From: Naegleria gruberi
Lineage: Eukaryota
DNA: 64,000 bases
NCBI GenBank assembly: GCA_000004985.1
Contig: GG738896.1
Strand: one strand, 5' to 3'
Shown: positions 9,317 to 64,000 of the stretch, one piece after another
How positions within the stretch are numbered: the stretch's first letter is position 1
Layout of the letters: each line of letters opens with the position of its first letter
The notes under the pieces: generated by a model
What the model was told of the DNA's origin: nothing
What the model saw: only the letters and a program-made list of their open reading frames with translations
The model's database searches: none
Translations under genes and position numbers: made by a program

Positions 9317-12300
9317 TTATTCAACCTTAGATGATTGCTCTGATTGTTCTAGAGAGAGGGATCTGAAAATAGGGAAGAAGGAAGTAACATCATCATTGTC
9401 TTCACATCGATCGTAAATGTATTGTTCTGTACCTGTGAATTCAGTCACTGATTTTTGGTAGAGGTAAATTAAAAAGTAGACATAATTCCACAAGTAGTGT
9501 TCCTCCTTGACATGCTTTTCAAAGGTGATACCTTCATTGGCTCTTGTATCGAATTTAGTTCGTTCCAATCCACAAATAAAACACTTATCTCGAATGTCCT
9601 TCTTTCTGTCTTCTCTTTCATTTCTCAGTACTTCAAACGAATCGAGAATGACACCAAACACAACGTTAACAAGTAACACAATAACTATCACTAAAAAGGA
9701 AAGGTCAAGTATGGCTCTCTGAACTGAAACATTTGGATCATAAATATCCTCCCAAAAAGATTCTCCTCTAAAGCCATAATCCAACATGGTCACATAGCAA
9801 GCTAACATATCTTCACATGTCTTGTCGCCTGTCTTGGAGATTTTAAAATCTGAAGAAAAGAAGGTAAAATAGAGTGTACCAAAGAAGAATAAGGCAATAC
9901 ACAACAACATTCCTGTAAAGAACAAACGTTTCACATTCGAAGTAACTGATTTCAACACATCGGTCAATGACTTGAAGATGTAAACCATTTCAAAAAGCTG
10001 TATCGAGTAAATAATTGGAGTTATCAACAATCCAATCACAGAGACTACAATGTAAATAATAAAATACCAAATTTGAGAATCTTGTATGGTATATAAAAAG
10101 CATTTGGTCATAAAATCAAAATCTCTTGGAATTGAGTCCCACGTTTCGTTTTTCTTTAGCTTGAATCGTTTCTTCACTTCCAACGTCAAGAAGAGTGATA
10201 CATAAATGACAAATAGAATTACCAGGAAAATCAATTGTGTCACACCAACAATAATAAGAATTATATCACTTGCAAGATTTCTAGGTGCTGTAGTTTTGGT
10301 GAGAGCATATACATCAAAGTCACTGCCAGGTAAAGGTATTTGAGAATACTCTGTTGTTGCATAAATTCTCTTAAATGTTCCCAAAACAATAATATTAATA
10401 ATAACAGAGAGGAAGAATGAAGACAATCTCAAGTAATCCCACCAATTGGCAATATATTCCCATGATGCTGTTTTAACCTCTTGTTTCTTCTTTTTCTTTC
10501 GTTTTGCTAGCAAATTGCTGGTTGTGGCAACGAGAGACATTGAAGGCAAAAGATTTTCCATTTCCTCCTCTGGTTCCTCTTCTTCTTTCTTGTTGAGATT
10601 CGGAATAGTAAAAGTCTTTTTCATATTTTCATAGTGACACATTTCCACATAGAATGTACTGAATGTGTCATTGTACAATTTCCTAACTTTTTCTTGTGGA
10701 GTCATTACGTGCAACGAATTGGCATAGTTGCTTCTTGCCTTATCGATAATATTGTTACATATTGTTGGTTTGGGAAAGTAGATCTTTTCAAGTACGTTAT
10801 TTCTCAATACTTCAATGCTACCAGTTCTTTGTTTGAAATAAGAGAGCTCCTTTGAATTGGTTTGGAAAAAGTTGGCTACTCTTGATTCCTCTTCCAAAGC
10901 TTGAGTACCCTTTCTGAATTCAGTCTCACTGTCCCTGATCATGGAGAGAAGGAAAAAGATGTGAGTTCCCAAGTCATCGTATTGCAATCTAATCTTCTCG
11001 AGATTGTCCTCCATATAGTCGTCGACACGGATTGGCTTCTTTGAACTCTTCTCAGATTGATACAAAACATGGAATCCAAAGTCTTTACGCATTCTCTTTT
11101 TGAGTCTTTCAAGATCATCACAATCATCATGGTTATTACCCGATAGAGTTTCGAACAATCTCAAAATGTACAATAATTTTTGTTCAAAATCATCCAAATT
11201 CAAAGAATTTTTCATGAATTCTAATGTGACTGTGTTTCTTCCTTCCAATAGAGATATTAAGAAGAGTGTAATTTCCTTCTTGAGGTCAAGCTCTTGTTCC
11301 TTCAACAACTTGCTGTCATCGTAGGTCTTACTCATGATTTCATTGATAAGTCTTGGATAAATCTTATTGGATGTACCAATTAAATTTTGGTTAAAGACAG
11401 CAGGTCCTTGGACAAATTCGGTCAGGGTCTTAAAACCTTGGATGGCTACTTGAACATTGTCTGCATCCAATTTCTTTTCCAAAGCAATCAAATATTCAAT
11501 AATTTCCGTAATTAAATCAAAGCTGAAAATATTTCTTGGTTGATGTTTCAATAGGGCTTGATTTTTGGTATTATGGCCTTCACACAATAATCTCAAAAAT
11601 TCCATAGTGTTAAAAATGAATCCCTTTTCTACAAATTCCACACCAACTTCATCTTCTTCGTTATCATGGTCAGCATTGAGGTTAGTTGTAGACTTTTTCT
11701 GGTTAGCTAGTGCCAACTCCTTGTCTCTCTTTTTCTTCAAGTGATTCTTCATTTGTTTGATTTCAATCTTTGAGAGACGGATTCTGTCTCTAAGAGACAT
11801 GAAAAATTCGGTAGAGTCTTGATCTGTAAGAAGCGAATAAATATGATTCTGAACGTCAAGATCTCCGTCATTCAATATTAAAATACCAAGCTCCAAAGCT
11901 GATTTTGCAATTTGATGGTGGTTAGAGTTGAGGAATTCAATAACTACCTCAGGAATTTTCTTTTCCACCAAATCTAATTTAAGAGTTGATTCTTCGGTTT
12001 GTTGGTTTTGCCTTTCAACAATACTCTTCAAAATATCCATACCAAAGAGTCCTACCTTCATGTTCTGAAGAAGTAAACCAGAACTATTCAAGTCACGTAA
12101 TACATTGACGAGTGTTTTGATAAATCCATCATATTTGATAAATATGGCAGCAAGCTCTGAAAAGTTGGAAAAGTTTCTATTAATCTTGGAAATTATTCTG
12201 TCTTTCAAGTACTTTTTGTATGTGTTGTGGATAAGTTCGTCCTTCTCGGTACTGGTTGATGTTTGTATTCTTGATCTATGTACCTTGGCTTTAGTGGCCT

Positions 12301-15300
12301 TATTTGAAATGAAATTAGAAATTGCTTTCTGACTAGTTGAAGACATACTTCTCTTCAACATGGCCTGAATACATTTGAGAACTTTATCCCTATTCTCTGG
12401 ATTTGGTGTATGTTTGTGAAGTTCTATGAGTTTTATCAACAAATCTTCTGCAATATCCAACTGTTCTTTTGTCAGATTTGGAGGTGGGAAGTGGAGATGG
12501 AAATAATCTCTCACACAAGGAATCATAATATCAAACAAATAGGTATTATCAACTTGATAGGTTTCTTGATCTTCCTCACTAGGTCCAACGACTTTTGGAA
12601 GTGCTACAGAGTATGTTTTCGAAGATCGTTTGGAAGCAGTTGTTGACAATCCACGGTTTTTGGTTGGAGTAGCAAACAGTGAAGTGTTTGAGAGGGTTTT
12701 GCTTGGTGTTGTTGGGGTTCGAGTATGGGCATGCATAATACTTTGTCTTTCACCTTTTTGTGTGGATAAAATCAAGTCGTTACCATCTGATTCATTTGAA
12801 TAGGTCATTTCTAACACTTCCAATTCAGTAACCATTTTAGAGAATAACTTGAAAAGCATTGGATGATGAACATTTACCATCTTGCTCTCAGATTCTGTAG
12901 AGTCATCTGATGCCTTTTCAACATTCAAGTAAATTTCATCAATAACTTTAACCAATGGATTTCTCAATACAGGTAGAGTACAACAAATAACTTGTTCTAA
13001 AAGTTCTTCATAGCTGTAGAGGGTTTGTAATTTAAGCTCACTCTCTCTGTTTTTACCATCAGCAAGAGAGGCCAACAAGTATAAAAGGGCAATGTGATAA
13101 TTTAAAATACCATCTGGTTCAGTTTTGTGTTCACCTTTGATAATTCTTTGATTACGTTCTCTGAGACCTTCTTCGTCTTTGAAAAGAATCATAATGTCCT
13201 TCTTTCTTTCGAGCAGATATTTGGTAATGAGTGATTGGTTTCGTTTGATTGGATTGCCATTATTTGTTCCCAGAATGACATGCAAGAACAACAACATGAA
13301 AGAGCAAGGTTGCTCAGCAATTTGGTCAATGTAGTGTTCGATTAATTTTTCTTCAATAGTACTGCACAGACCTCTATTGTCTCTTACCATTTCACAAAGG
13401 AGAATGACAATCTTCTTATCTAGACTTCTATTCTCACCAATAGTGTGAATAAAGAATTCCAATTGTTTGAACATAATCTTTTGATTGTCTTGATTTCCTC
13501 TAACAAAAGCAATTAAAATATCAATACCAATCTCTTCAATTTCCTTGCTCACAATATAATCCTTCTTGAGGAATGTGAGAATAATATCATAAATGAAGAG
13601 ATTTCTCACTATTCTTTGTGATCTTTGACCATTCTTCTTGATATCTGATAGGATTTCATTGAGAGCTTTTAGGACTTTTTTCTCTTCCTGTTCTGTGAGT
13701 CTTCTAGTACCAAAATAATTGCTTTGACCATAACCAAAAACAGATCGCAACTCAACTACCTGTGAAAGTAGCAAATCGTAGGATTTAGCCATTTCTCTCG
13801 AAACGATAAGTTCAATCTTTGGAAGAACTTCACATAATTCTTGAGCAGATCTGTACTTTCTAATTAGTAAATCAAGGCAGGTTGTAGCGAGTTCCTTATT
13901 TTCATATTTGGTCAGCGAAAGAATTTTAACATCGAATCGATCCATCTTGTTGAAAATAACATCCTTTTCGAGAATATCTTTGATTACAGCATATTCATTA
14001 GAGTCAATTTCGGCAAGTCTTTTCTGTTGTAAAGCTCTATTGTCCATTGGTATCACCTCTTGTTCTCTAAGTACAGTCTCAATCTCTTCCTCTCTGTATT
14101 TCTTCCAAAAGAATTGCAAGAATTTTGTCACTCTCTTGTCTAAAATAATGTCTAGAATCATGTGGAAGATGGAAGCAATTTCAATTTTGATCTTCATGAG
14201 GGTTAAATTTTCTTCTACGTTTTTGTGTCTTTCTTCCTCACTAAGAATTCTACCATCCTTCTTGTCATTATCTCCTCTGAGCATATCAAAGAGAGAATTC
14301 AACAAATCACCCTCCTCAAAGTCTATCAATGTAAGAACTCCAAATTCCAACATTCTCTTACACATAATTACAACGTATAATGTAAAGTTGTTGTGATCCT
14401 TCTTTTCTAAAGACACATCCAAGCTAACATTCTCTCTAAGGAATTTCCCTAAAAAATCTTTGATTTCTGCCAAATCCTTTGAGTTGCCGTCTTCTTTTGA
14501 TCTTTGATTGAGAGTACTGGTTTTTCTGGTGTAGTCAATCAGTGGTTTCTTTTCTCTCTTCTCCGTATCAATGAAAGTTTGGATCAAAAGCTTTACAAAT
14601 GATGTTCTGACGGCTGGTGTTAAATTCTTATCAGAGACACATTTGTGGACAACTTCGTAGGTGAACAGAGAAACAACAGATCTTCTCGCATCCTCAATTT
14701 CTTCATTTCTTCCTGTACAGAGGGCAGCAAAAAGACGAATTTCCTCTTGGAAGAAGATGAGTTGTTCATAATTTGGTCTTGTGTATCCATTGTATGTATC
14801 ATCTGTTGCAGACTGAGAGAAACTAATCAAGTCTATTTCATCATGATTGACTTCTACCACAACCTTGTCTTCATTGTTAAGCTTTGGAATGATAAAAACT
14901 CTTCTCAATTGGTCCTTATATTTTGAAAAAAGCAAATTACCAATATATACCTGATTTTTCACCACAGTTTTACCTTCACAAATGATCAAGCTAGTCAAAA
15001 AGGATAAATAGACAGCCTTCTTCAAGCTCTTGGAACTTTGTCGCATACCAATCTTTGATGTGTTTTCAAAGAGAAGCTTGACGAAAAAGTCAATTTGTGA
15101 CTCGGTAATCTTGTTCAAAAGTGGATAATTGTTGGATAAGATTTCCAACAGAGCTTCACTTGCAGCAATGCTATGTTCAATCAGAGTTTGGATAAAGTTG
15201 ATATATTGTGCCATGTAGAGACCGTTAGATTCGTTTGAAAGGACAAACTGTCTAATGAGTCTGAAGGAGTACTGAACCACATCAAAATAAAGTGCCTTCT

Positions 15301-17664
15301 CTGGCTTTTCATAAATTAAAGATAAATCCTCAATTGATAAATATTTCTTCAATAATAGAGTGATATTTTCCATTACAAGACCAATGACTCCCATATCTCT
15401 GATGATATTTTGTCTAAGTTTAACAGGAATACCACCTCTTGTTAGAGGGTCTGTCTCTTCACTAATAGTACAAAATCTAATGCAATTTGCCAATGCACCA
15501 ATGTAGAGTTTGATATCTGACTTGTCAATGAGCGAGTCGTCCAACTTGGATTTGAAATACCTAATAATTGGCATGTAACCAGCTACGGTGAGTGCATCAT
15601 TCAAATCCTCATGTGAAACAGCTGAAAAATTGAAAACATCCTGTTCAAACATTTTCAAAGATGAAGTTACTCTCTGATAGGTTGAGTCAGCAAGTGGTCT
15701 AGATATGTGTACCCAAGAATTAGTGGCTTCATGCCTCAATCTAAAGTAATCGGTGGTTTGAACTTTCTCACCCTTCTTTTGTCCTCCAGTCGAGTCGGTG
15801 AAATGGAAGACACTGGTTGGTATTGGTTGTGTAATCAAGTCATCAAAGTTTTCAACATGAAGAGTCCACAATGAATCATTTTGTGTTACGCTGCCTGATC
15901 TATTTCCTCGTGGAGTGGCTACAATTGAACTTTTTCTAGGTGCATTAACTCCAAGTTGGCTCAAGTTATCACCAGATGTTGGTGTGTTTTCTCGTTCATA
16001 TCTTTCTTCAATGGCATCATCCGCTTCAATGGTTATTCCTTTAATAGGACGAATCACCATGTATTTTCCACTTGCCAAGTGTCTTAGACGGAATTTCGAA
16101 GTCCACTTTACAGTACCAGAACAGCTAGAGTCTAAAAATTCCAATTGCCACAAAGTTTGAGGACTCACATAGTCAGAAGATTTAGATTCCATACCAGCCA
16201 AGCTTGTATCCTCAGAGTCGTTGATTTGTAGATTGCTTGATTTCTTGAAAAATTTAATTCTATCCGTTTTTTCATTCACTCCAATATATCCTTCCAATTC
16301 CTTGTGGTATATTCTCATAATGGTGGATCCTGCTTTGAGTTTTCTATTTGTTTCATCATTTTGTGGTGTGTATTTTTGGTAGAGTTTCATTCTCCACCTA
16401 GTGAATGCAGTACTATTCGCCATGTTAACTTCTCTTCTACTATCGTAGGAATATTTTCCTCTATTTCGTGATAATTTTACAGCTTGTTGAGCTAATTCTG
16501 TGTATGAAGAATTTTCATTCACTCTTTGATAGGTACCATCATTGTCTTCTCCAGTTGTGTATCTATAATAGGATAAGTGAATAAATTGGTTGGACTTTTT
16601 GTTGTAAAGTCTAATTTGATCAGTGAGTTTAACTTGATCTCCATCCTTTTGAAAACTGGAATATGGCATTATTTGAAAGTATGAATAGGTAGATCCTTCT
16701 TTATCGAGGGCCAATCTCATACAATCCTTTTGCATTTCTGCAGATTCTCTTGCTACTGTCAGATAGCACTGTGTTTGTACATGATACAATTGTACTGTTT
16801 GTCCATAGACAACTGGTTTTGAAAGGTTTCTTTGTGATTCCATCCTATTTTGTTCAAGTTCTCTTTCAGCTCGTTGTTCCAATTGTTGATATTCTGTTGA
16901 GAAGGAGGCTGTCGAAGGCATTACATTATTCTTGTTATCCTTTGTTTTTTTGTTGGCCTCTTTCAACTCTTGTTCTTCTTTGAAGGTTTTGAACTTTTTC
17001 AGTGCTGAATAACTCTTTGGATGACAAATCTTGAAAACACAATTAGAAAAGTTTGGTGTAAAGAAGGAAGAATCCTTTTCTGAAATGACAGATTCCACCA
17101 GACCACATCTAGCTTGTGGTTTGTTTCTAAAATATTGATGAAATAATAAAAGTAGTATTTAACAGAGAATAAAGAAGGTGAATAATTAGTTGAATATTTA
17201 AACAATATTTACCCTTTAACATTCTCGGAACAAGTCAAATTAATACCATCCACACTCAAGAACCCAATCATTGAATTACCAGTACTTTTTGATGACAAAT
17301 CCGTATAGAAGGAAATTTCCTCTCCAATTCTCAAATAATCTCCCTTCTTTTTCATCATCATATTATTCATCCACAATTGTTGCTCATCCTCCTTCACATC
17401 ACTCATCACATCTTCATCCTCATCATACAAATGATGATCAAAGCCTTGTTGTTGCTGTGCAGAAGAGGATGATGATGACGAATATTCGGAATGTTGTTCA
17501 TGATGATGATTTGATGTGGCGCCATTATTTTTAACGGCAGAAGTGGCGCTTACCGATACGATGAGTTGTTCTTGTTGTTGATGAAATAAGAGTGCATAGT
17601 CAAAGAGGTGTTGTGATGATGGTTCGGAAGAGTTGCTATTGTTATGATTATTGGATAGTGTCAT
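9317..17664 (-). CDS. Inositol-1,4,5-trisphosphate-receptor-like intracellular Ca2+ release channel (IP3R/RyR superfamily), about 2750 aa. Two exons, join(17664..17213, 17126..9317), with an 86-nt intron.
   Basis: Exon 1 is track ORF 17209..17664, starting at ATG 17664. It has an Asn/Ser/Gln/His-rich leader, then the start of the suppressor/beta-trefoil domain 'LRIGEEISFYTD...GFLSVDG' (compare IP3R1 'LHIGDIVSLYAEGS..GFIST'). A GG|GTAAAT donor at 17212 and a TTTTAG acceptor at 17127 join in phase 2 to the 2593-aa ORF ('...ARCGLVESV...CVFKICHPKSYSALKKF', compare 'DRCVV...CLFKLCPMNRYSAQKQF'). The C-terminus has six-TM channel helices, a pore region, and the diagnostic '[44 protein letters not shown]' (IP3R '[36 protein letters not shown]'). 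Confidence 0.8.
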
Positions 17665-18022
17665 GTTGTGAAAAGTCTTCCAAAACTATTTCACTTATTT
17701 TTTTTTGTTAAATGTTGACAGATGAAGGATTGTCAGCTTATCAATATTTCAAGACGTGTGTTATACAATTTAATTGATAAATATTTCCTCAATCAATACA
17801 ACTATTAGCCATTGTTAATCCTAATGTTGTATTATCTGAATTATTTAAATTTTGGCGCCAACTAGTTGAAAAAAAAGAACAAACATCTCATCAAGGTTTT
17901 GCTTTTGATTTACAGTTTTTTTGTATTCCTTCCGATCACTGACTCACCCTGGCTACAACTTCTGTAATATTGTTATTCTTGCTACAGTAATACTCCTCCT
18001 TTTTGTAAATATATTAAAAAGA

Positions 18023-18895
18023 ATGAAATTAACAATTCGATCCGATAAACCAATTGTAAATTTGTATAATAATTTCCCAAAAGATTTAAGGGAACATTTG
18101 GAAAAGTGGGATTTAGGTACTGAGAGTACTTTCTATGAATCGTTCTATGTGGATTTGGATATGAATCAACATGATGAAGCATTAGTAAATACCGAATCTA
18201 AGGAACTGCTCCTCAAAAGGGCCCTTGCAAATTCTGATCAAATCAAGGAACTGGCTAATGAGTACTTGAATAGATTGAAAGAGAGATTTATTTGCTGTGG
18301 AGCTCTGCATCAATTAGATACTGTTCAAGATGTGTCACCTATGAACATCAAGTTGGCAGACATGACGTTAATTCAGAGAGAATTTCTAACCAATGAGTCG
18401 TTGTTATACTTGAAATCTCTCAACACCAGAAAATGCTTAGACGAACAAATTGACTCTGAAATGTATGTCTCTGATGAGTACAGAAAGGCTATGGCATACA
18501 TGTTGTGGGCTGAAGGATGTACCTATTACAATGAAGATACTTTCATTGAGAATTGTAACTTCCAACAGTACGGACTAGTGGAGGACTCTTGGACTAATAT
18601 TTGTGCTCGAGAGCTACTGTTGCATATACATGCAAGATTGGTTATAGGAGGAAAATTTGGCCAGTATGAAGATAATTTGATGCCATATTTTAATAATACC
18701 AAGTTACTATATAAGAACATTGTCTCCGTGCAGAAAGTGAGCAGTGTTGATTCAAATCAAAGTAGTCAAGGTTTTTCCATTGCATCCAAAGCGTACAAAT
18801 GCCCAGTCACCAACGATCTGGTGGATAAGAGTTACTTCCTCCTAATTGTTCATCCAATAGATAAGAAGGTTACAATCATGTTGCATGCAGAGTGA
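18023..18895 (+). CDS. Hypothetical protein, about 290 aa.
   Basis: The track ORF is 17921..18895 and its first ATG is at 18023 ('MKLTIRSDKP'). Globular, no family recognised. Divergently oriented from the IP3R-like gene. Confidence 0.35.
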   Translation: MKLTIRSDKPIVNLYNNFPKDLREHLEKWDLGTESTFYESFYVDLDMNQHDEALVNTESKELLLKRALANSDQIKELANEYLNRLKERFICCGALHQLDTVQDVSPMNIKLADMTLIQREFLTNESLLYLKSLNTRKCLDEQIDSEMYVSDEYRKAMAYMLWAEGCTYYNEDTFIENCNFQQYGLVEDSWTNICARELLLHIHARLVIGGKFGQYEDNLMPYFNNTKLLYKNIVSVQKVSSVDSNQSSQGFSIASKAYKCPVTNDLVDKSYFLLIVHPIDKKVTIMLHAE

Positions 18896-20145: not shown

Positions 20146-22103
20146 TTACTGTTGACATGCTCTCCAGAAAAATAGGGCAGAAAATACCAAAAGATATAGG
20201 ATGCAAAAAGCTATCAGACTGTACTTTTTTGGAGATTTCATTCCTGTTATCATAAGTGTTATCAATTAATTGGAAAAGAAGAACTGAACTTACCTGCAAC
20301 TGTGAAAAGTATGGCAGTAAGGAATGCATACAAATAGTCATACCATTCTGGGGGAAGTAATGGTGCTTTGACAGTAGTAATTCCATCAAGTGATAATCTT
20401 GGACAAATGAAACAATACTGGAAAGTTAAACAAGGTGCAATCAAACTATTAAATGATTTCTCAATATTAAATTTTAAATATTGAATACATACCTGAAAAC
20501 ATGGTGGAATTTCGTATAAAATTGAACAGGTTTGATTACAAATAGAATTCCCAAAATTAATGATCCAACACTCAATACTACAAACAAATACCAATTGATA
20601 TTTTCCATATTTTGTCCACCCATAGTAATTAATGAAACACTCCTCTCTGTTGGAGCATAACAAGGCATTAAACTGTACAATAGGGAAGATCCACCTCCAT
20701 TACAAGGTGGACACAATAATCCCAAATGAATAATATAAATCAATGATCCAATCATGATGGCACTCATTCCTTGCAAGACTCCAAACAAGCAATCACTTGG
20801 ATAATGCACACCTAGGTAAATTCTGGCACAACTCGAAGCTAAGGCACTCAACATGCAACATGGTAGACACCAACTCCAAAATGCAACATCAGACATTGAT
20901 TCTCCATTTATAATACATCTCACAAAGTAACAAACCAAAAACGAATATACCACAGAGCAACTAGATTGAGTTATCTTCCACAATTCGGTTCATTTAATAC
21001 TTACGTAACTGCTCGACTTGGAAATGAACTTGTTTTGTCTTTGGCTATTTTCAATGCTCTTCCAGCAAGGTATGGTCTTTTTCTGAAAAGAAATCTCTTT
21101 GGTAATTGACTTAACATAGCGAGTGTGAATATTACCCACATGACATAGCATGCAAATTGATCAATTCCCAATAAATAGAGAATGAACGGAGCAAGGATAC
21201 CAATCTCAATTGTGGTAAAGGCAGTAACAATCAAACTCATTAGGAAGAAAACCTTATTAGGTTTCATTTGGATTATAGAAATAATCTTATCATCAAATGT
21301 TTCCCAATACTTTTCAAATTTCGGATTAATTTTGTAAACAACTAAAAAGAAATCATGTGAAAACATCAAAATATCAAAAACAATTAATCTTGAATAATGC
21401 TCAAATCCTTACATTTCTCGTAATCTCCCAATTTTTCATGAGCAATGGGTGATTGAACTTCGTTTGGAATATTTTCAACAGTGACTAACCTAGAATTTTC
21501 TGTATGTATCGAATGATCAGATTCATCCTCTGGTGTTTTTACATGTTGTTGATGATGCTGATGCTGATTATTGTGTTCCGATGATGATTCATCATTTGAT
21601 GAAGAATTTTCAACAATATTTTCCTCATCCACAACAAGCCTTGATGTTGTTCCTTCTTCTGCTGATGATAATGTGTTGTTATTATTATTCGAATAGGAGC
21701 TTACTTCCTTTGAGTAGAAATCAGTAATTACATTAAAAACACCATCCAATGATGACGAACTTCTATGATGTGATAAATCACCACTCGAACTATGACTCAA
21801 CATGATATCCCTACTATTTGCAAAATTATTATTAATATTACTACTACTATTATAATTATTATTATTAATTATTAAATTATTATCCAAGGTTAATCCCCTC
21901 GTAATTGTTTTTCTCTTCTTTTGAGGAGATTTATGATGATTAATATTTTCTTCTTGATGATGAATAAATAATTTTTCGCTTGCTTCTTCCTGTTGCTCAC
22001 GATGAATCGTTGGAGTATTGTTGCTATTAATGATACTGCTATTATTATTATTAGTTGCTACTTGTTTTTGAATATTCGTGGTTACACTTCTCCTCGTAGA
22101 CAT
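20146..22103 (-). CDS. PAP2 superfamily lipid phosphate phosphatase-like membrane protein with an Asn/Ser-rich N-terminal extension. Five exons: join(22103..21413, 21341..21005, 20960..20493, 20445..20294, 20243..20146).
   Basis: The track splits it into ORFs 21384..22103, 21001..21369, 20474..20983 and 20262..20663. Only 17 nt separate the stop of the first ORF from the ATG of the second, so they cannot be independent genes. A GTAAGG donor at 21412 and a TTTTTAG acceptor at 21342 join them in phase. PAP2 motif 1 is 'KRFLFRKRPYL' (KxxxxxxRP). Motif 2 is divergent: 'SFPSRAVT' in place of SFPSGH. Motif 3 is 'ARIYLGVHYPSDCLFG' (SRxxxxxHxxxD). Further GTAAGT and GTATGT donors lie at 21004, 20492 and 20293. 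The last exon encodes a hydrophobic helix 'IAFCILYLLVFSALFFW'. The 3' exon choice is uncertain. Confidence 0.45.
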
Positions 22104-22815
22104 GTTCCGAATATATGCTCAACTCCTTACAAACTCCTTCGTATAAATTTACAGCTTGTTGTTGAATCTAATCACTCTATTACTACTAACTCAATAGATG
22201 TCCAATAGAGAACAGCAGTTAAAAAGAAAAATCTTTTTGAAATTTGTAACGGTTATTGCAAAGCGCGCTTTTTTTTAATGTGGATGTCAAAACTATGGAT
22301 GATTGGTTCAAAACAAATCCAAAACCTTTCAATCCAAATTCATTTCACTGATTCTCTCATCTCACCAACAATCTTTTCAATTCCTTATTCCTTAATCAAA
22401 AACAAAGAACATGGAAATTACTGCCAAGGAACTTCTCGCAAAAATGCGAGTGAACATTTAACTCGTCTTTTTGGCTTTGGTAATCAGATTGTCATGTTGT
22501 TCGTCATCCTTTCATCACTTAAGAAAAAGAACAAGAAATAAGATATGGGCAATAAATCATCGTCATCAACTCAACCACAGCAACAAGCACCTTCGGGATC
22601 AGGAGGAAATGGCTCAACACCACCGCCACAACAACAATCCTCTCGACCACCTGCTAAGAAGTAACAAAAGTATTACAATGAAAAATTGATAGATATTAAT
22701 AATCAATTCTAGAGATGAATTCAATTTCATCATCTTGCTAATAATAAATTCAAGTTCAATCACAACATTATCTTCTCACGTTTTGAATCATCATCACTAA
22801 TTAATTATTAAAAAA

Positions 22816-24360
22816 ATGATCAATTCGGAACAGACAATGATTGATGATAATAATTTACTATCAACCACTCCACAATTTAAAATTATTTGGTTGGATGAGA
22901 ATTTCATGCACTTGCAAAGTTCCATTCACAAAATTAAATGTGTTCTTTTCAATGCCAGTGTTGACCAAAGAGATTTTAATGAATCTTTCGATCTAATTGA
23001 GTTGGAGAAACATGTTAGAAATTTAATATCGAATAATAATCATGTGATGGTAATTACGAGTTATAGTAAAGGAAAGGGATGCCAGGTTTTGGAATTGTTG
23101 CAAAGATTGAAGAGAAGTAATGAGGAGCAAGTAATTTATTCATGTGTCTATAGTGGAAGTGCTTTACGAAATGTAATGCTTCAGAATTTGTGCATTTTGC
23201 AATATGGAGCTGATTTTGTTTCGTCTTTGAATAATGCGAATGCCTTGTTGGAATTGGAAAGTTTCATTGCTCAAATCTATCAGAAATCATACTATCCAAA
23301 ATTAATGAAATATCTGAGCAGATTGGTATTCCAGAAAGATAATATGGAACATTTAATTTCGCCTACTAGCACTCTGGTACGATCTCACATGGTTCTTGAG
23401 GAAGAAATTGAAAGAGAAACACTCAGAGAACAAGGAAAGGAATATGATTGTAAATGGGAACACGTCCCTCTCAGAAAGATAGCTCACAATTTGCATTTGC
23501 AACAATCGGCCTGTCTTTCTCTCACTCACCGACCACTCGTTCAACAACCTCAATTCCTGGTCATGATTCAAACAGGAGCCATTAATCCACCTCACAAAAT
23601 GCATCAACAGGGATTTGAAGTTGCTAAGGAATTTGTGGAAAATTATCAAACTCTAATGAAGGCAGTGGAGAGTAAACCAAAGCTGAATAGAGAACTCTTG
23701 CAAAAGATTCTGAGACCTATCAAGGTGGTTGGATGCTACATGTCGCCAAGTCATGATGGATATATCAAGAGTAAGGCCTCCAAATACAAGTATTCCAGTA
23801 CTGTTCGATTGTATACTGCAACAGAGAGATTGACAATGTGTGCGTTACAAACACAAGATGATCCATTCACATGTGAATATCCTTGGGAGTCTTGCCAACC
23901 TAAATTTATATCCTTCTCTCAAGTGGGAAATACCTGTTCCACAATACTGAGAAGTGCCGAATGTCCAATTTCAATGCTCATGCCTAAAAATCCAAATACC
24001 AATCAATATCAAGATTCCTGCTCTTATTTGAGAGTTTGTTATACATGTGGAGCTGATTTGATTTTGAGAGCTGGCCTTAGAAGATTCGATTACTTTGAAG
24101 ATATGTTATCACTTGTGGTTGGAAGACATGGAGTTAATGTTGAGGAGGTTATGAAGTCAATTAATGAAGCTCATAACAACATGCCAGTTTTCTATGTAGA
24201 GATAGAGAATATGCAGGAAAATGCATTAAGCTCAACTGAAGTTAGAACTTGTTTGGAGAATATTGCCAAGAATGAAGATGTTAAAAATTCTAGAATGAGA
24301 TTGGAAAAAGTATTGGACCTTAGAGTTTTGGAATATATTATTAATGATTGCAAACTGTAA
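22816..24360 (+). CDS. NMNAT-family (nicotinamide/nicotinate mononucleotide adenylyltransferase-like) nucleotidyltransferase with a roughly 250-aa N-terminal extension of unknown function. 514 aa.
   Basis: 'FLVMIQTGAINPPHKMHQQGF' is the (H/T)xxH nucleotidyltransferase motif (GSFNPxTxxH). 'VGCYMSPSHDGYIKSK' matches the ISPVxDxYxKK motif. The C-terminal 'LSSTEVRTCLEN' matches ISSTxxR. Confidence 0.55.
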   Translation: MINSEQTMIDDNNLLSTTPQFKIIWLDENFMHLQSSIHKIKCVLFNASVDQRDFNESFDLIELEKHVRNLISNNNHVMVITSYSKGKGCQVLELLQRLKRSNEEQVIYSCVYSGSALRNVMLQNLCILQYGADFVSSLNNANALLELESFIAQIYQKSYYPKLMKYLSRLVFQKDNMEHLISPTSTLVRSHMVLEEEIERETLREQGKEYDCKWEHVPLRKIAHNLHLQQSACLSLTHRPLVQQPQFLVMIQTGAINPPHKMHQQGFEVAKEFVENYQTLMKAVESKPKLNRELLQKILRPIKVVGCYMSPSHDGYIKSKASKYKYSSTVRLYTATERLTMCALQTQDDPFTCEYPWESCQPKFISFSQVGNTCSTILRSAECPISMLMPKNPNTNQYQDSCSYLRVCYTCGADLILRAGLRRFDYFEDMLSLVVGRHGVNVEEVMKSINEAHNNMPVFYVEIENMQENALSSTEVRTCLENIAKNEDVKNSRMRLEKVLDLRVLEYIINDCKL

Positions 24361-24452: not shown

Positions 24453-26174
24453 ATGCAGAAATTCAAAAGCAGCTGCCTATTCACAGCCAATCCATTTAAT
24501 AAATATTCCTCATCATTGGGAGGCTTATTTTTACAGCAGCATCATCATCAAAAGAATATCTTCCGAATCACCTCCTCTAACAATTTAAATAAGAATTATA
24601 GTCAGAATTTTAATCGGTTTGTTGGAGAGAACAAGCCTTTGGAAAAATCTCATCATGATGGTGCAGGAAAAGAATCATCAAATTTGGAGAAGAAATTAAA
24701 TAATGGAAAGAATGTGCATATGAGAAGGGAAAATCATGCAATGTTTATGGAAAGGACAAGAGAATTGAATGAGAGGAGGGATGAAATTATACCACTGCTG
24801 GCAAGTCCATTGAAAACTGAGGAGACCATTGAGAGATTTATGAGTAATTCAAAGAGGAATTTTACATTTGTCAATGATCAGGCCAAGGTGAATGTGTTAA
24901 AGGCCAAACTCTTGGAAAAGAAGGATGAATTGATTGTTTTTGAGGGAACGTATCATAACATGTTGGAATTATATAATGGATTGAAGAGGAAAATTTCAGA
25001 ATACTTGAATGAGAGAATTTCCAATGATTCGAGGCCTAAATCATTGAAGGAAAAGTATTTGGAGAATCACATTTCTAAACTCGAATTTACTGAAATAATG
25101 TCTAGATTTGGAGTATTGGGAAGAATGGTGAATGGCTCTTTGCAAGTTAATGTGAAGAAATTGCCAACTTTGGATTTGTTGGATAGACTTGGAAATTTCA
25201 CAATAGAACAATCTAGGAAAATGAAACCAGAAGTGGTGAGGAGCGAAATATTCATACCAATTCATACATTGATATCTTCAATCAAGTCGATGGATCAATG
25301 GGAAAAGAAGGGAATTGAATTGGAAACTGTTGAAGATGAGAAAGTTACAATTTATCCACATTTTGGAGTTTACATGCCAACAAGGAAGGAATTATTCACA
25401 TCATTAATCAAACAATCAGTCAATGAGCTTATTAATTCTAAATTGACAAATAGTAAGAAACCTAAATTGGAAATTTTGGATTTGGGCGCTGGATCTGGAG
25501 TGTTTTCAATCTATGTTTCCAAATTAATTTCAGAAAATGTTTCAGATTTGGAAATTAAATTTGTAGATATCAATCCATGGGCGTTGGAATGTTCAAAATT
25601 TAATTTTGAAAATAATTTTAAATCTTGCAATAACATTAGTGGAAAATATGTTCAAGTTGATTTGACAAGTGACAATAATCTGAATGAATCGAAAGATAGT
25701 AATTCTATTAATTTAATATTGTGCAATCCACCTTGGATATCCATAGAGAAGAAAGATTATGAACACATTCAGAATGAAAGGATGAAATTCGGTTCATTTA
25801 AAAATACAATTGATTTATCAATATTTGACACGGATTATGAATTTCTGGACCAATTTTTACATCTCCTCCAGAAATCACAAAACAAACAAACATTTGGAAT
25901 GCTGTTAGTGAGTAATGTTGGACATTTGGTAGGAGTGGAACAAATTTCAATATTGCAAGCTTTGGAAAAAAAGATAATAGGAACAAACATCAAGATTGAG
26001 AAGGTGGTTACTTTGAGGAGAGAACAGGGGTTGAATCAAGAATTGTCAGTGAAAAAGTATTTGGTCAATAATCCACTTTCCTCCAAGAGGAAGAAATCTC
26101 CTCATCAAAATTTAATTCAAGATACAAAGGCCAGTGAAGAAGTTTATTGTGTAAATCTCAGGAGAATTGATTAA
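24453..26174 (+). CDS. SAM-dependent methyltransferase with an NPPW motif (HemK/N6AMT/PrmC-like class I MTase). 573 aa.
   Basis: Motif I is 'ILDLGAGSGVFSIYV'. Motif IV is 'LILCNPPWIS' ((D/N)PP(Y/W), typical of amino-group, N6-adenine or glutamine MTases). Long N-terminal region of unknown function. Confidence 0.55.
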   Translation: MQKFKSSCLFTANPFNKYSSSLGGLFLQQHHHQKNIFRITSSNNLNKNYSQNFNRFVGENKPLEKSHHDGAGKESSNLEKKLNNGKNVHMRRENHAMFMERTRELNERRDEIIPLLASPLKTEETIERFMSNSKRNFTFVNDQAKVNVLKAKLLEKKDELIVFEGTYHNMLELYNGLKRKISEYLNERISNDSRPKSLKEKYLENHISKLEFTEIMSRFGVLGRMVNGSLQVNVKKLPTLDLLDRLGNFTIEQSRKMKPEVVRSEIFIPIHTLISSIKSMDQWEKKGIELETVEDEKVTIYPHFGVYMPTRKELFTSLIKQSVNELINSKLTNSKKPKLEILDLGAGSGVFSIYVSKLISENVSDLEIKFVDINPWALECSKFNFENNFKSCNNISGKYVQVDLTSDNNLNESKDSNSINLILCNPPWISIEKKDYEHIQNERMKFGSFKNTIDLSIFDTDYEFLDQFLHLLQKSQNKQTFGMLLVSNVGHLVGVEQISILQALEKKIIGTNIKIEKVVTLRREQGLNQELSVKKYLVNNPLSSKRKKSPHQNLIQDTKASEEVYCVNLRRID

Positions 26175-59362: not shown

Positions 59363-60981
59363 CTTGGGTTTGGGTTGGTGGGGTTTGGGTGAGTTTTATA
59401 CACTTTCATACAATAGAGTGATATTGAAATGTACCCTTTGATATTTCTGGATGGGTAGCATGATTTAGTGATGATTCCGACAATAAAAATCATATATTGT
59501 TCATATAATTATCAAGATATTGTATAATTTATTAAATATAAAGTGGGTAATATTGAATATTCTTTGTAGGAGCGGAAGCACTTATTCTTGTCAGTTGGAG
59601 TCAGTATTGTATTAAGGTTCATTTTAGGAATCTTAAAAAAATACAATAACAACTCACCTGCATCAACATCATCAAGTATATCATCTATATTGAATATAAA
59701 GCAACAGCAAGAATGTATGGAGTTGATTCAACATGATTATTGGATTGGAGAGATGGCAAAAATATTACTATTATTGTATTTGTCAAGTTGGAAGTACCCT
59801 CAGGATCATCAGCGAGGTTTCCTCTTCATCTCTTCTTGTTAGAGAGGTTTTTCATCCACAAGATGGTCATCTTCTTCATTGAAGAGGTTGCTTTATTATT
59901 AAGCACTGAGAGAAGCGTTTTTAAATTTTATTTTGATGAAATAAATCAAAATTTATTACGCACAACACATCAAGAACAACAACAGCAACATGCTGATACA
60001 CCATCATCATCACTGGGTGAATTGGCCATCATTGTTGTATAATTTCTTGGAATTTATTGGATTAACAGTAAATTTTGGAATTACTCTCCTATTGAAGATG
60101 GAACATCAGCAACATCACCAAGATGATCTTCAATTGGATAGTATTGTTTTCAGAAGTGGTTTCACGCTTTTTGTGGGCTCTTTCAACATACCATCATCAG
60201 AATGGTCATCATCTTGTTGAGGGAAGATGTTCAACCTTGTTTTGGAAAGTAGAATATCTTACCACCACTCTATTCTCCTATTTTGATTGGATTGGTGGAG
60301 GTGCCACCACCTCTTCATACATTGGGTTTGGGTTGGTGGGGTTTGGGTGAGTTTTATACACTTTCATACAATAGAGTGATATTGAAATGTACCCTTTGAT
60401 ATTTCTGGATGGGTAGCATGATTTAGTGATGATTCCGACAATAAAAATCATATATTGTTCATATAATTATCAAGATATTGTATAATTTATTAAATATAAA
60501 GTGGGTAATATTGAATATTCTTTGTAGGAGCGGAAGCACTTATTCTTGTCAGTTGGAGTCAGTATTGTATTAAGGTTCATTTAAGGAATCTTAAAAAAAT
60601 ACAATAACAACTCACCTGCATCAACATCATCAAGTATATCATCTATATTGAATATAAAGCAACAGCAAGAATGTATGGAGTTGATTCAACATGATTATTG
60701 GATTGGAGAGATGGCAAAAATATTACTATTATTGTATTTGTCAAGTTGGAAGTACCCTCAGGATCATCAGCGAGGTTTCCTCTTCATCTCTTCTTGTTAG
60801 AGAGGTTTTTCATCCACAAGATGGTCATCTTCTTCAATTGAAGAGGTTGCTTTATTATTAAGCACTGAGAGAAGCGTTTTTAAATTTTATTTTGATGAAA
60901 TAAATCAAAATTTATTACGCACAACACATCAAGAACAACAACAGCAACATGCTGATACACCATCATCATCACTGGGTGAAT
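59363..60981. repeat. Subtelomeric direct tandem repeat with a 959-bp unit. There are at least 1.7 copies, the second cut off by the assembly gap. Each unit begins with a degenerate telomere-like tract (GGGTTTGGGTTGGTGGGGTTTGGGTGAG).
   Basis: 59365-60323 and 60324-60981 are near-identical, offset exactly 959 bp. An example is '...gagttttatacactttcatacaatagagtgatattgaaatgtaccctttgatatttctggatgggtagcatgatttagtgatgattccgac...' in both copies. Only single-base differences were seen, for example tttaggaatc versus ttaaggaatc. Confidence 0.7.
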
Positions 60982-62796
60982 NNNNNNNNNNNNNNNNNNN
61001 NNNNNNNNNNNNNNNNNNNNNNNNNNNNNNNNNNNNNNNNNNNNNNNNNNNNNNNNNNNNNNNNNNNNNNNNNNNNNNNNNNNNNNNNNNNNNNNNNNNN
61101 NNNNNNNNNNNNNNNNNNNNNNNNNNNNNNNNNNNNNNNNNNNNNNNNNNNNNNNNNNNNNNNNNNNNNNNNNNNNNNNNNNNNNNNNNNNNNNNNNNNN
61201 NNNNNNNNNNNNNNNNNNNNNNNNNNNNNNNNNNNNNNNNNNNNNNNNNNNNNNNNNNNNNNNNNNNNNNNNNNNNNNNNNNNNNNNNNNNNNNNNNNNN
61301 NNNNNNNNNNNNNNNNNNNNNNNNNNNNNNNNNNNNNNNNNNNNNNNNNNNNNNNNNNNNNNNNNNNNNNNNNNNNNNNNNNNNNNNNNNNNNNNNNNNN
61401 NNNNNNNNNNNNNNNNNNNNNNNNNNNNNNNNNNNNNNNNNNNNNNNNNNNNNNNNNNNNNNNNNNNNNNNNNNNNNNNNNNNNNNNNNNNNNNNNNNNN
61501 NNNNNNNNNNNNNNNNNNNNNNNNNNNNNNNNNNNNNNNNNNNNNNNNNNNNNNNNNNNNNNNNNNNNNNNNNNNNNNNNNNNNNNNNNNNNNNNNNNNN
61601 NNNNNNNNNNNNNNNNNNNNNNNNNNNNNNNNNNNNNNNNNNNNNNNNNNNNNNNNNNNNNNNNNNNNNNNNNNNNNNNNNNNNNNNNNNNNNNNNNNNN
61701 NNNNNNNNNNNNNNNNNNNNNNNNNNNNNNNNNNNNNNNNNNNNNNNNNNNNNNNNNNNNNNNNNNNNNNNNNNNNNNNNNNNNNNNNNNNNNNNNNNNN
61801 NNNNNNNNNNNNNNNNNNNNNNNNNNNNNNNNNNNNNNNNNNNNNNNNNNNNNNNNNNNNNNNNNNNNNNNNNNNNNNNNNNNNNNNNNNNNNNNNNNNN
61901 NNNNNNNNNNNNNNNNNNNNNNNNNNNNNNNNNNNNNNNNNNNNNNNNNNNNNNNNNNNNNNNNNNNNNNNNNNNNNNNNNNNNNNNNNNNNNNNNNNNN
62001 NNNNNNNNNNNNNNNNNNNNNNNNNNNNNNNNNNNNNNNNNNNNNNNNNNNNNNNNNNNNNNNNNNNNNNNNNNNNNNNNNNNNNNNNNNNNNNNNNNNN
62101 NNNNNNNNNNNNNNNNNNNNNNNNNNNNNNNNNNNNNNNNNNNNNNNNNNNNNNNNNNNNNNNNNNNNNNNNNNNNNNNNNNNNNNNNNNNNNNNNNNNN
62201 NNNNNNNNNNNNNNNNNNNNNNNNNNNNNNNNNNNNNNNNNNNNNNNNNNNNNNNNNNNNNNNNNNNNNNNNNNNNNNNNNNNNNNNNNNNNNNNNNNNN
62301 NNNNNNNNNNNNNNNNNNNNNNNNNNNNNNNNNNNNNNNNNNNNNNNNNNNNNNNNNNNNNNNNNNNNNNNNNNNNNNNNNNNNNNNNNNNNNNNNNNNN
62401 NNNNNNNNNNNNNNNNNNNNNNNNNNNNNNNNNNNNNNNNNNNNNNNNNNNNNNNNNNNNNNNNNNNNNNNNNNNNNNNNNNNNNNNNNNNNNNNNNNNN
62501 NNNNNNNNNNNNNNNNNNNNNNNNNNNNNNNNNNNNNNNNNNNNNNNNNNNNNNNNNNNNNNNNNNNNNNNNNNNNNNNNNNNNNNNNNNNNNNNNNNNN
62601 NNNNNNNNNNNNNNNNNNNNNNNNNNNNNNNNNNNNNNNNNNNNNNNNNNNNNNNNNNNNNNNNNNNNNNNNNNNNNNNNNNNNNNNNNNNNNNNNNNNN
62701 NNNNNNNNNNNNNNNNNNNNNNNNNNNNNNNNNNNNNNNNNNNNNNNNNNNNNNNNNNNNNNNNNNNNNNNNNNNNNNNNNNNNNNNNNNNNNNNN
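60982..62796. other. Assembly gap of 1815 N.
   Basis: Run of n characters. The flanks suggest it hides further copies of the 959-bp subtelomeric repeat. Confidence 0.95.
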
Positions 62797-63024
62797 TAAA
62801 AGAGGTCAAGGAGAGATTTCAAAACATAAAATAAATTATATTTTCGAGATGTACTATTGATTTCCAATCGATTGATATGTATTTTGTAGATTGAGGATGT
62901 GGTTCTTTATTTGAAGAGTTCCTCCTTAACTTACCAAGTAAACCCTGATATTTCACCCTTTACCTTACTGAATGATGGAATATTCACCAAAATATCTGTA
63001 AACTGAACCATATATATTATTAGA

Positions 63025-63500
63025 GATGTAGAACATGATGGTGATGTTTCATTGAGTGGTCATTTTCCAGAAATTCATCCATGTCCATAGTTGACTAGAT
63101 GGTATGAAAGGGATGAAATCATGAATATGTATGTTAAAATAAACTTTATATTCTATCTCTACTCATCAAATGGAGCATTTTCATGTATATATTGTTGATT
63201 GAAGTGATGTATTTGATAGACTTGATCTGACCTGTCAATCCTTAAAGTCAACCTTATAAAGTCAACCATTATCTTCCTATAGTTCCATTTCTTGTTCTTA
63301 TGATATGAAATTGAATTCTACATCATTATAGATCATGTACATCATGTTGGTAAAGTTTCAATAGTGGTCCTTTTTCAAGATTTCATCCTTTTCATCATAG
63401 TTGACCATATGATGGTTGAGGGAAGAAATCTTTAAATATGAAAGTGAAAATAAATTTGATATTCGATGTTTACTAATCAAATGGAACATTTTCATATCAG
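63025..63500. repeat. Telomere-associated degenerate tandem repeat, about 310-bp period, 2 copies, immediately proximal to the telomere.
   Basis: 63025-63200 and 63335-63500 align with about 70% identity. An example is 'tcattttccagaaattcatccatgtccatagttgactagatggtatgaaagggatgaaatcatgaatatgtatgttaaaataaactttatattctatctctactcatcaaatggagcattttcatg' versus 'tcctttttcaagatttcatccttttcatcatagttgaccatatgatggttgagggaagaaatctttaaatatgaaagtgaaaataaatttgatattcgatgtttactaatcaaatggaacattttcat'. Confidence 0.4.
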
Positions 63501-63548
63501 GATTTAATATGTTTTGATGAGAAACTCAAAAGTTATAGTTGACCTATT

Positions 63549-64000
63549 GGGTTTGGGTTGGGTTTGGGTTTGGGTTGGGTTTGGGTTTGGGTTTGGGTTT
63601 GGGTTTGGGTTTGGGTTTGGGTTTGGGTTTGGGTTTGGGTTTGGGTTTGGGTTTGGGTTTGGGTTTGGGTTTGGGTTTGGGTTTGGGTTTGGGTTTGGGT
63701 TTGGGTTTGGGTTTGGGTTTGGGTTTGGGTTTGGGTTTGGGTTTGGGTTTGGGTTTGGGTTTGGGTTTGGGTTTGGGTTTGGGTTTGGGTTTGGGTTTGG
63801 GTTTGGGTTTGGGTTTGGGTTTGGGTTTGGGTTTGGGTTTGGGTTTGGGTTTGGGTTTGGGTTTGGGTTTGGGTTTGGGTTTGGGTTTGGGTTTGGGTTT
63901 GGGTTTGGGTTTGGGTTTGGGTTTGGGTTTGGGTTTGGGTTTGGGTTTGGGTTTGGGTTTGGGTTTGGGTTTGGGTTTGGGTTTGGGTTTGGGTTTGGGT
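63549..64000 (+). repeat. Telomere: about 75 tandem GGGTTT (TTTGGG) hexamers with occasional GGGTT variants. The G-rich strand is oriented toward the window end.
   Basis: Perfect hexamer periodicity to the last base of the window. The TG-rich strand runs 5'->3' toward the terminus, as expected for a right chromosome end. Confidence 0.85.

Follow-up and report, generated by a model that had tools for sequence, protein, structure and literature searches.

In a 64,000-nucleotide stretch of the Naegleria gruberi genome (assembly GCA_000004985.1, contig GG738896.1; the whole stretch is hereafter called the window), we examined a gene whose product appears to join a divergent enzyme domain of the NMNAT family, the adenylyltransferases of nicotinamide and nicotinic acid mononucleotide (NMN and NaMN), to an N-terminal domain predicted to adopt the CheY-like receiver fold. 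Taking both halves together, we consider with moderate confidence that the protein is a lineage-specific NMNAT-like adenylyltransferase equipped with a regulatory or oligomerisation pseudo-receiver module.

The gene occupies positions 22816..24360 on the plus strand, exactly where a first-pass annotation, made by a model from the DNA letters, had reported an open reading frame (ORF). It begins with an ATG, runs without interruption in a single exon for 514 codons plus a stop, and is closed on its 5' side by in-frame stops directly ahead of the ATG. At the composition of the window (~35% G+C, stop-codon frequency ~0.064), the chance that a frame of 514 codons stays open is ~1e-15, and ~6e-7 for the first 215 codons alone. 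The product is identical (100% identity, 100% coverage, length 514) to the NCBI/UniProt entry ‘nicotinamide-nucleotide adenylyltransferase [Naegleria gruberi]’, and the database gene model coincides with the ORF; that entry carries no precomputed Pfam domain and leaves the N-terminal domain unannotated. The window is accordingly nuclear DNA of N. gruberi. The databases thus already contain the gene, with an NMNAT name that was assigned automatically, and the assignment of its C-terminal half in the first-pass annotation is not new. The supplement of PMC4217691 does not list a Naegleria NMNAT.

Family and features of the catalytic module

Searches of the PDB placed a eukaryote-type, strongly divergent NMNAT-like nucleotidyltransferase module at aa 216-514 (23461..24357, +). 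With the N. gruberi sequence alone the best match was a plant NMNAT, 9rpk (E=2.3e-5); a profile of the N. gruberi and N. fowleri proteins matched 9rpk at E=8.9e-10, followed by human NMNAT1 and NMNAT3, and a profile of five family members matched 9rpk at E=1.1e-14, 9iw1 at 4.6e-9, NMNAT3 at 4e-8 and NMNAT1 at 1e-6. The sole other nucleotidyltransferase in this five-sequence search was bacterial NadD (E=0.048), and no choline-, ethanolamine- or glycerol-phosphate cytidylyltransferase (CCT, ECT, TagD) or PPAT was found at E<=10. The first-pass annotation had raised a better alignment to phosphocholine/ethanolamine cytidylyltransferases than to NMNATs as a possible objection, and we found no such alignment. 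Cytidylyltransferases are marked by HxGH, with Gly, and by an RTxGxSTT/RTxGISTT motif; here motif 1 ends in H-K-M-H and motif 2 reads LSSTEVR instead of RTxGISTT, and we rejected that identity on these differences and on the lack of a CCT/ECT match.

The two ATP motifs are GAINPPHKMH (motif 1, aa 254-263; 23575..23604, +), which fits GxFxPx[H/T]xxH with Ile in place of Phe, and LSSTEVR (motif 2, aa 471-477; 24226..24246, +), which fits ISSTxxR (definitions from PMC5889475). Both are kept in all five full-length family members. Within motif 1 the Gly, the Pro and both His (H260, H263) are invariant and the Phe position is held by Ile, Leu or Phe, and within motif 2 the L, S, S, V and R are invariant. 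Three further elements lie between them: the SPSHDGY loop (aa 310-316; 23743..23763, +), aligned to SPVNDAY of the plant NMNAT and written for the clade as SP-x-H-[DE]-x-Y; PWES (23881..23892, +), aligned to PWEA/PWES of the plant and human NMNATs; and GADLILR (24049..24069, +), aligned to G[SA]DL[IL] of solved NMNATs. The registers in the PDB alignments follow the NMNAT order, with TGAINPPHKMH on TGSFNPPTFMH (9rpk), YMSPSHDGY on YMSPVNDAY, PWES on PWEA, GADLIL on GSDLLL or GADLIM, and LSSTEVR on ISSSRLR or ISSTKVR (the latter in 9iw1). The PPHxxH, SPSHDGY and SSTEVR motifs read in the first-pass annotation are accordingly all present and aligned with counterparts in solved NMNATs.

Near the start of the module stands PLRKIAHNLH (aa 218-227; 23467..23496, +), a segment nearly invariant in the family. 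Because the stand-alone relatives described below have an N-terminal P-[IL]-x-x-x-x-x-N-L segment in register with it, the catalytic module begins near aa 216 and the extension ahead of it is ~215 aa long. An extension of ~250 aa had originally been proposed; its existence is upheld by conservation in orthologues, but its length had been overestimated.

On the strength of the motifs and PDB profiles, membership of the C-terminal module in the eukaryote-type NMNAT-like nucleotidyltransferase family is well supported. On PF01467, whose cutoff is 21 bits, the orthologues score 19.2-28.9 bits, and the N. lovaniensis protein alone passes. The earlier description of the protein as NMNAT-type therefore stands as regards family membership, but fails at the Pfam and NCBIfam thresholds, and ‘NMNAT’ is used here as a family assignment only. 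Going by the family, the most likely reaction would be that of ATP with NMN or NaMN to give nicotinamide adenine dinucleotide (NAD) or its nicotinic acid counterpart (NaAD) and pyrophosphate.

The closest outside relatives of the module are stand-alone PF01467 proteins from metagenomes (P0009-P0011; 256-263 aa; E 3e-22 to 3e-11). Next come P0013-P0019, proteins of the bdelloid rotifer Adineta steineri and of metagenomes in which an N-terminal NMNAT-like domain is followed by a C-terminal protein kinase; the relatives together span E 3e-22 to 5e-4. An SP-[ST]-H-D-x-Y loop is common to the catalytic module, the stand-alone relatives and the rotifer kinase fusions, and CGADLILR recurs in P0009. 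Since P0009 matches NMNATs in the PDB at ~3e-10, the SP-x-H-D group belongs to the NMNAT family as a divergent sub-clade. A canonical NMNAT is presumably present in rotifers too, as they are animals, and in that case their SP-x-H-D members would be extra paralogues. The stand-alone and rotifer proteins thus resemble the Naegleria protein in their catalytic sub-clade, and the rotifer proteins show this sub-clade fused to signalling domains elsewhere; they differ in that none has a receiver-like N-terminal domain, the rotifer partner being a C-terminal kinase. In P0020, an uncharacterised fusion whose NMNAT-like domain is more weakly related, this domain is joined to a region bearing DDDICTGATM, a motif like that of type-I phosphoribosyltransferases.

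The N-terminal extension and its predicted fold

The extension is shared by a small set of related proteins. The N. fowleri orthologue (624 aa) is 41% identical to the N. gruberi protein over 99% of the query, extension included. When an HMMER profile of the N-terminal region alone was run against 1.84 billion representative proteins, six proteins matched: N. gruberi itself, N. lovaniensis (619 aa), Willaertia magna (591 aa), the metagenome protein P0004 (531 aa), a 118-aa fragment (P0006), and a 1612-aa protein (E=4e-4) that we regard as spurious, its match consisting of 11 short stretches. Outside Naegleria, Willaertia and their metagenomic kin, no relative of the extension was found by sequence among these 1.84 billion proteins. 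Neither the full protein nor a five-sequence alignment, used as queries in word-index protein searches, returned anything beyond the two Naegleria proteins, and a scan of metagenome contigs with the family alignment returned no relative.

Comparison with orthologues, a check suggested in the first-pass annotation, found the extension in N. fowleri, N. lovaniensis, W. magna and the metagenome protein, and the two-part architecture is collinear in all four of these full-length relatives. Measured against N. gruberi, the relatives are 28-38% identical over the receiver-like core and 40-49% over the catalytic module; both modules are therefore maintained by selection. The fusion probably arose in the Naegleria/Willaertia lineage, or is at least found only there, as far as the protein searches reach.

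The orthologues also differ by insertions. In N. fowleri and N. lovaniensis the receiver-like domain is longer by ~70-80 residues in the α2 region, with other inserts behind β5 and within the linker; N. gruberi, Willaertia and the metagenome protein lack all of these. The inserted sequences are conserved between the two species that have them, so that we take them for probable coding sequence, not introns left unspliced.

From the orthologue alignment and the predicted model we divide the extension into three parts. A tail (aa 1-19; 22816..22872, +) varies in length and sequence among orthologues, with a predicted local distance difference test score (pLDDT) <50 for aa 1-13. It is followed by the receiver-like (CheY-fold) pseudo-receiver core (aa 20-142; 22873..23241, +), and then by a long helix α5 (aa 143-175) and a helical, charged linker that runs to aa 215 (together 23242..23460, +). 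Helix α5 bears a conserved LExF..YQ..YY.L pattern, and the linker contains an SP at 182-183 and a helix at 195-205.

The fold was predicted with AlphaFold. A first run (AlphaFold 2) on the full-length protein with 2 sequences was poor (pLDDT 42) and served just as independent support for the β-α pattern, but it already drew five β-α units over aa 21-137 (pLDDT 55-84). A second run, built on six sequences and confined to aa 1-244 (nearly the whole of residues 1-250, which the first-pass annotation had singled out for modelling), reached a pLDDT of 77.9 and a predicted template modelling score of 0.77, with five models alike and a CheY-like core. The modelled elements are β1 21-27, α1 30-43, β2 47-53, α2 60-72, β3 76-81, α3 84-101, β4 107-111, α4 120-129, β5 134-135 and the long helix 143-175, with helices beyond α5 at 186-189, 195-205 and 219-234. 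Foldseek was far less clear-cut: only two matches had E<=0.001, and in a list shared with other flavodoxin-like folds the receivers GacS D1, TadZ, Rcp1 and PmrA stood at template modelling (TM) scores of 0.62-0.65, referred to the target. The core of the extension is, as modelled, a CheY-like receiver fold of the (βα)5 type. The nucleotide-binding α/β fold originally suggested for this region was not borne out, the modelled fold being CheY/flavodoxin-like; the only glycine-rich stretch, SKGKG (aa 84-88), is not conserved in orthologues, and for this reason we rejected a P-loop or Rossmann reading of it.

We then asked which signature residues of receivers are retained. CheY positions were mapped by secondary structure and by an hhalign register for β3-β4 (VMVITSY/GFVISDW) whose probability of 0.95% makes it a guide and not evidence of homology. 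The phospho-acceptor position at the end of β3 (CheY D57) falls on Ser82 (codon 23059..23061, +); all three Naegleria species and P0004 have Ser there, P0006 has Cys, and Willaertia alone has Asp. At the end of β1, where CheY has the acidic pair D12 and D13 for Mg2+, and in a register set by eye, the CheY D12 position corresponds to the invariant D27, and the D13 position (E, K, T, E, K or D/G across the family) is not conserved. The position of CheY T87 at the end of β4, in an hhalign register of very low probability, is Ser113 in Naegleria, with Ser also in P0004, and Cys in W. magna and P0006. The β5 Lys (CheY K109) has no counterpart in Naegleria: N. gruberi and N. fowleri read GADFVSSL there (S137, L138) and N. 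lovaniensis has N, Y, whereas W. magna has a Lys (YVSK) and P0004 has one a single position later. The residues N46, K99 and Q123 are invariant and, judged by their place in the secondary-structure elements, lie away from the acceptor pocket.

With both the acceptor Asp (Ser82 in N. gruberi) and the β5 Lys lost, the Naegleria domain cannot act as a classical Asp-phosphorylated switch, and we classify it by these residues as a pseudo-receiver in which classical Asp phosphorylation is impossible. That Willaertia still has the Asp and the Lys, both lost in Naegleria, hints that the ancestor may have been a true receiver, degenerate only later. Receiver domains are part of the N. gruberi repertoire, since 24 histidine kinases are predicted in this species (PMC6324907).

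Proposed mode of action and alternative explanations

We propose that the second module (~aa 216-514) would transfer AMP from ATP to NMN or NaMN to yield NAD or NaAD, as expected from its family, and that the first module (aa 20-142 with α5 and the linker to ~aa 215) would serve as a docking or oligomerisation module. Since receiver domains typically work through the α4-β5-α5 face and the α5 linker, the pseudo-receiver may use the same route to set the assembly state, the binding of partners, or the activity of the enzyme and access to its active site. In a receiver-like domain that lacks the phospho-acceptor Asp, such control of NAD synthesis is something we infer.

Several results weigh against this proposal. 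For the catalytic module, the full N. gruberi protein found no relevant match in Pfam or NCBIfam at E<=1, which reflects how divergent the module is, and because its nearest relatives are uncharacterised, specificity for NMN or NaMN is less than assured. For the extension, the fold assignment comes from a model built on only 6 sequences, and among the Foldseek matches the flavodoxin-like RRS1 TIR domain (TM 0.54), PurE and TRAPPC11 are listed at similarly weak E-values. Pfam searches with N-terminal fragments and with the 6 family members detected neither Response_reg (PF00072) nor any other domain, the N-terminal alignment, run as a profile against the PDB, had no match at E<=10, and hhalign of that alignment against the receivers CheY, Spo0F, PhoB and NtrC returned the probability of 0.95% given above, which is not significant. 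No paper on this protein, or on the fusion of a receiver with an NMNAT, came up in a literature search.

The catalytic half could instead be an NMNAT-superfamily nucleotidyltransferase with a task other than housekeeping NAD synthesis, for instance on another mononucleotide or in a non-catalytic role, with a separate canonical NMNAT present in Naegleria, an alternative that we take seriously while thinking it unlikely. It would account for the silence of Pfam and NCBIfam on the N. gruberi domain, and for a catalytic module that lies nearer to the uncharacterised SP-x-H-D-x-Y clade (P0009-P0011, P0013-P0019) than to characterised NMNATs; the canonical NMNATs that rotifers presumably possess would likewise make this clade a paralogue there. 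We also count in its favour that the Lys57 position of human NMNAT1, located by eye in an alignment with the human sequence, is not conserved in the family. Against it stand the two conserved ATP motifs and the equally conserved SPxxDxY loop, PWE and GADL, all in register with solved NMNATs; above the noise only NMNAT/NaMNAT structures were matched, with no other family fitting better.

A different question is whether the receiver-like module is a live input switch that gates the assembly or activity of the NMNAT, through Asp phosphorylation retained in Willaertia and through Ser82 phosphorylation or the binding of a ligand or partner in Naegleria. We regard this as doubtful. If it were true, it would be the first case of eukaryotic NAD synthesis wired directly to a two-component-type switch, which might operate in encystment or in the amoeba-to-flagellate transition. 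We give somewhat less credence still to a working receiver, in which Asp phosphotransfer from a histidine-kinase relay (possible in Willaertia) or Ser/Thr phosphorylation at the same pocket in Naegleria would make NAD synthesis a direct signalling output. The acceptor is Ser in four of six family members and Cys in one, a K or a T replaces the second acidic residue at the end of β1 in both N. fowleri and N. lovaniensis, the β5 Lys is absent from all Naegleria proteins, PF00072 gives no signal, and the invariant residues N46, K99 and Q123 are, by their secondary-structure positions, distant from the acceptor pocket, all of which argues against this reading.

That the N-terminal domain might be TIR-like, binding or cleaving NAD and so coupling a consumer or sensor of NAD to its synthase, seems to us very improbable: the RRS1 TIR domain ranked third in Foldseek (E=5e-3, TM 0.54 referred to the target) and SPARTA TIR-APAZ chains occur among the weak matches, but the domain fits TIR no better than other flavodoxin-like folds and does not show the catalytic Glu and box motifs. 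The idea that the extension is a gene-model artefact, in which two genes were merged or an untranslated leader was taken for coding sequence, has its unusual length and nothing more to commend it and is effectively refuted by the uninterrupted frame (~6e-7 over the first 215 codons), the in-frame stop upstream of the ATG, and an extension conserved in protein sequence and collinear in five proteins; the mis-joined upstream gene considered in the first-pass annotation was rejected on the same grounds.

If the NMNAT-like enzyme with a pseudo-receiver module that we favour is indeed the NMNAT of Naegleria, the pathogen N. fowleri would make NAD by an enzyme strongly unlike the human ones, and the divergent catalytic module, the clade-specific inserts and the lineage-specific pseudo-receiver could offer selective handles for drugs against it. 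The known receiver-domain architectures would likewise gain an output domain so far missing from their catalogue. Should the protein turn out to be a paralogue, it would mark an uncharacterised NMNAT-like clade that has repeatedly been fused to signalling domains, receiver-like here and a kinase in rotifers. The fusion is unexpected and lineage-specific, yet the switch is degenerate and no long-standing question hinges on it.

Genomic surroundings and comparison with known systems

The neighbouring genes have no evident functional link to the NMNAT-like gene, as expected for a eukaryote. Upstream lie an IP3/ryanodine-receptor-like channel encoded by an uninterrupted ORF of 2593 aa (9317-17098, -; Ins145_P3_rec, MIR, RIH, RIH_assoc and Ion_trans domains), CFAP300 (17921-18895, +), a PAP2 phosphatase fragment (20474-20983, -) and an Asn-rich ORF without domains (21384-22103, -). 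Directly downstream is an MTS/PrmA-type methyltransferase of 573 aa (24453-26174, +; domain E=2.4e-10, NPPW motif), whose long N-terminal region ahead of the domain has no Pfam match. A small ATG-initiated ORF of 39 codons (22545-22664, +), ~150 nt upstream of the NMNAT-like start and in another frame, encodes MGNKSSSSTQPQQQAPSGSGGNGSTPPPQQQSSRPPAKK; its Gly2 might allow N-myristoylation, and it could be an upstream ORF in the 5' leader, a tiny gene, or a chance occurrence.

At the far end of the window, ~76 perfect tandem TTTGGG repeats occupy 63547-64000 (Tandem Repeats Finder unit TTGGGT, 99% matches); the G-rich strand reads 5' to 3' up to the last position of the window, and ~3.5 kb at 17-22% G+C (60001-63546) precede the array. 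Together, the array and the AT-rich stretch look like a chromosome-end telomere with its subtelomere, which would place the NMNAT-like gene ~40 kb from the end.

We compared the protein first with eukaryotic NMNATs (A. thaliana 9rpk; human NMNAT1 1kqn and NMNAT3 1nup; 9iw1). Motif 1 including its eukaryote-typical x-M-H ending, SPxxDxY, PWE, GADL, ISSTxxR and the order of these elements are common to both. The similarity of the N. gruberi protein is at the profile level only and sub-threshold in Pfam/NCBIfam, and its clade has inserts of its own, one of ~11 aa behind the SPSHDGY loop and one a conserved segment that reads LRSxECPxSxLxPxNPxT, the latter at what we take to be the place of a variable loop in human NMNAT1. 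Canonical NMNATs also lack the ~215-aa structured N-terminal module of the Naegleria protein.

The layout is similar to that of enzymatic response regulators, such as the receiver (REC)-phosphodiesterase RegA of Dictyostelium and, in bacteria, the REC-GGDEF proteins PleD and WspR, and CheB. The receivers of these proteins keep the D-D/D/T/K residues and match PF00072, whereas the Naegleria domain has Ser at the acceptor position, has lost the Lys and gives no sequence match. We know of no REC-NMNAT response regulator, and none was found in the literature. Pseudo-receivers, whose receiver fold has no working phospho-acceptor and which serve in protein-protein interaction or in constitutive dimerisation, offer another likeness: known examples among the structural matches (2hqr, a FrzS chimera) are alike in fold, but they carry different output modules and show no homology beyond the fold.

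A precedent for an NMNAT domain in a multidomain regulatory protein is bacterial NadR, which consists of a helix-turn-helix domain, an NMNAT domain and a ribosylnicotinamide kinase. NadR differs from the Naegleria protein in its partner domains, in the bacterial type of its NMNAT module and in having no receiver fold. Set against all of these systems, the Naegleria protein departs from receivers in its acceptor Asp, its Lys and its fit to the sequence model, and falls below the thresholds of curated NMNAT models, but in its motifs and similarity it agrees with the NMNATs.

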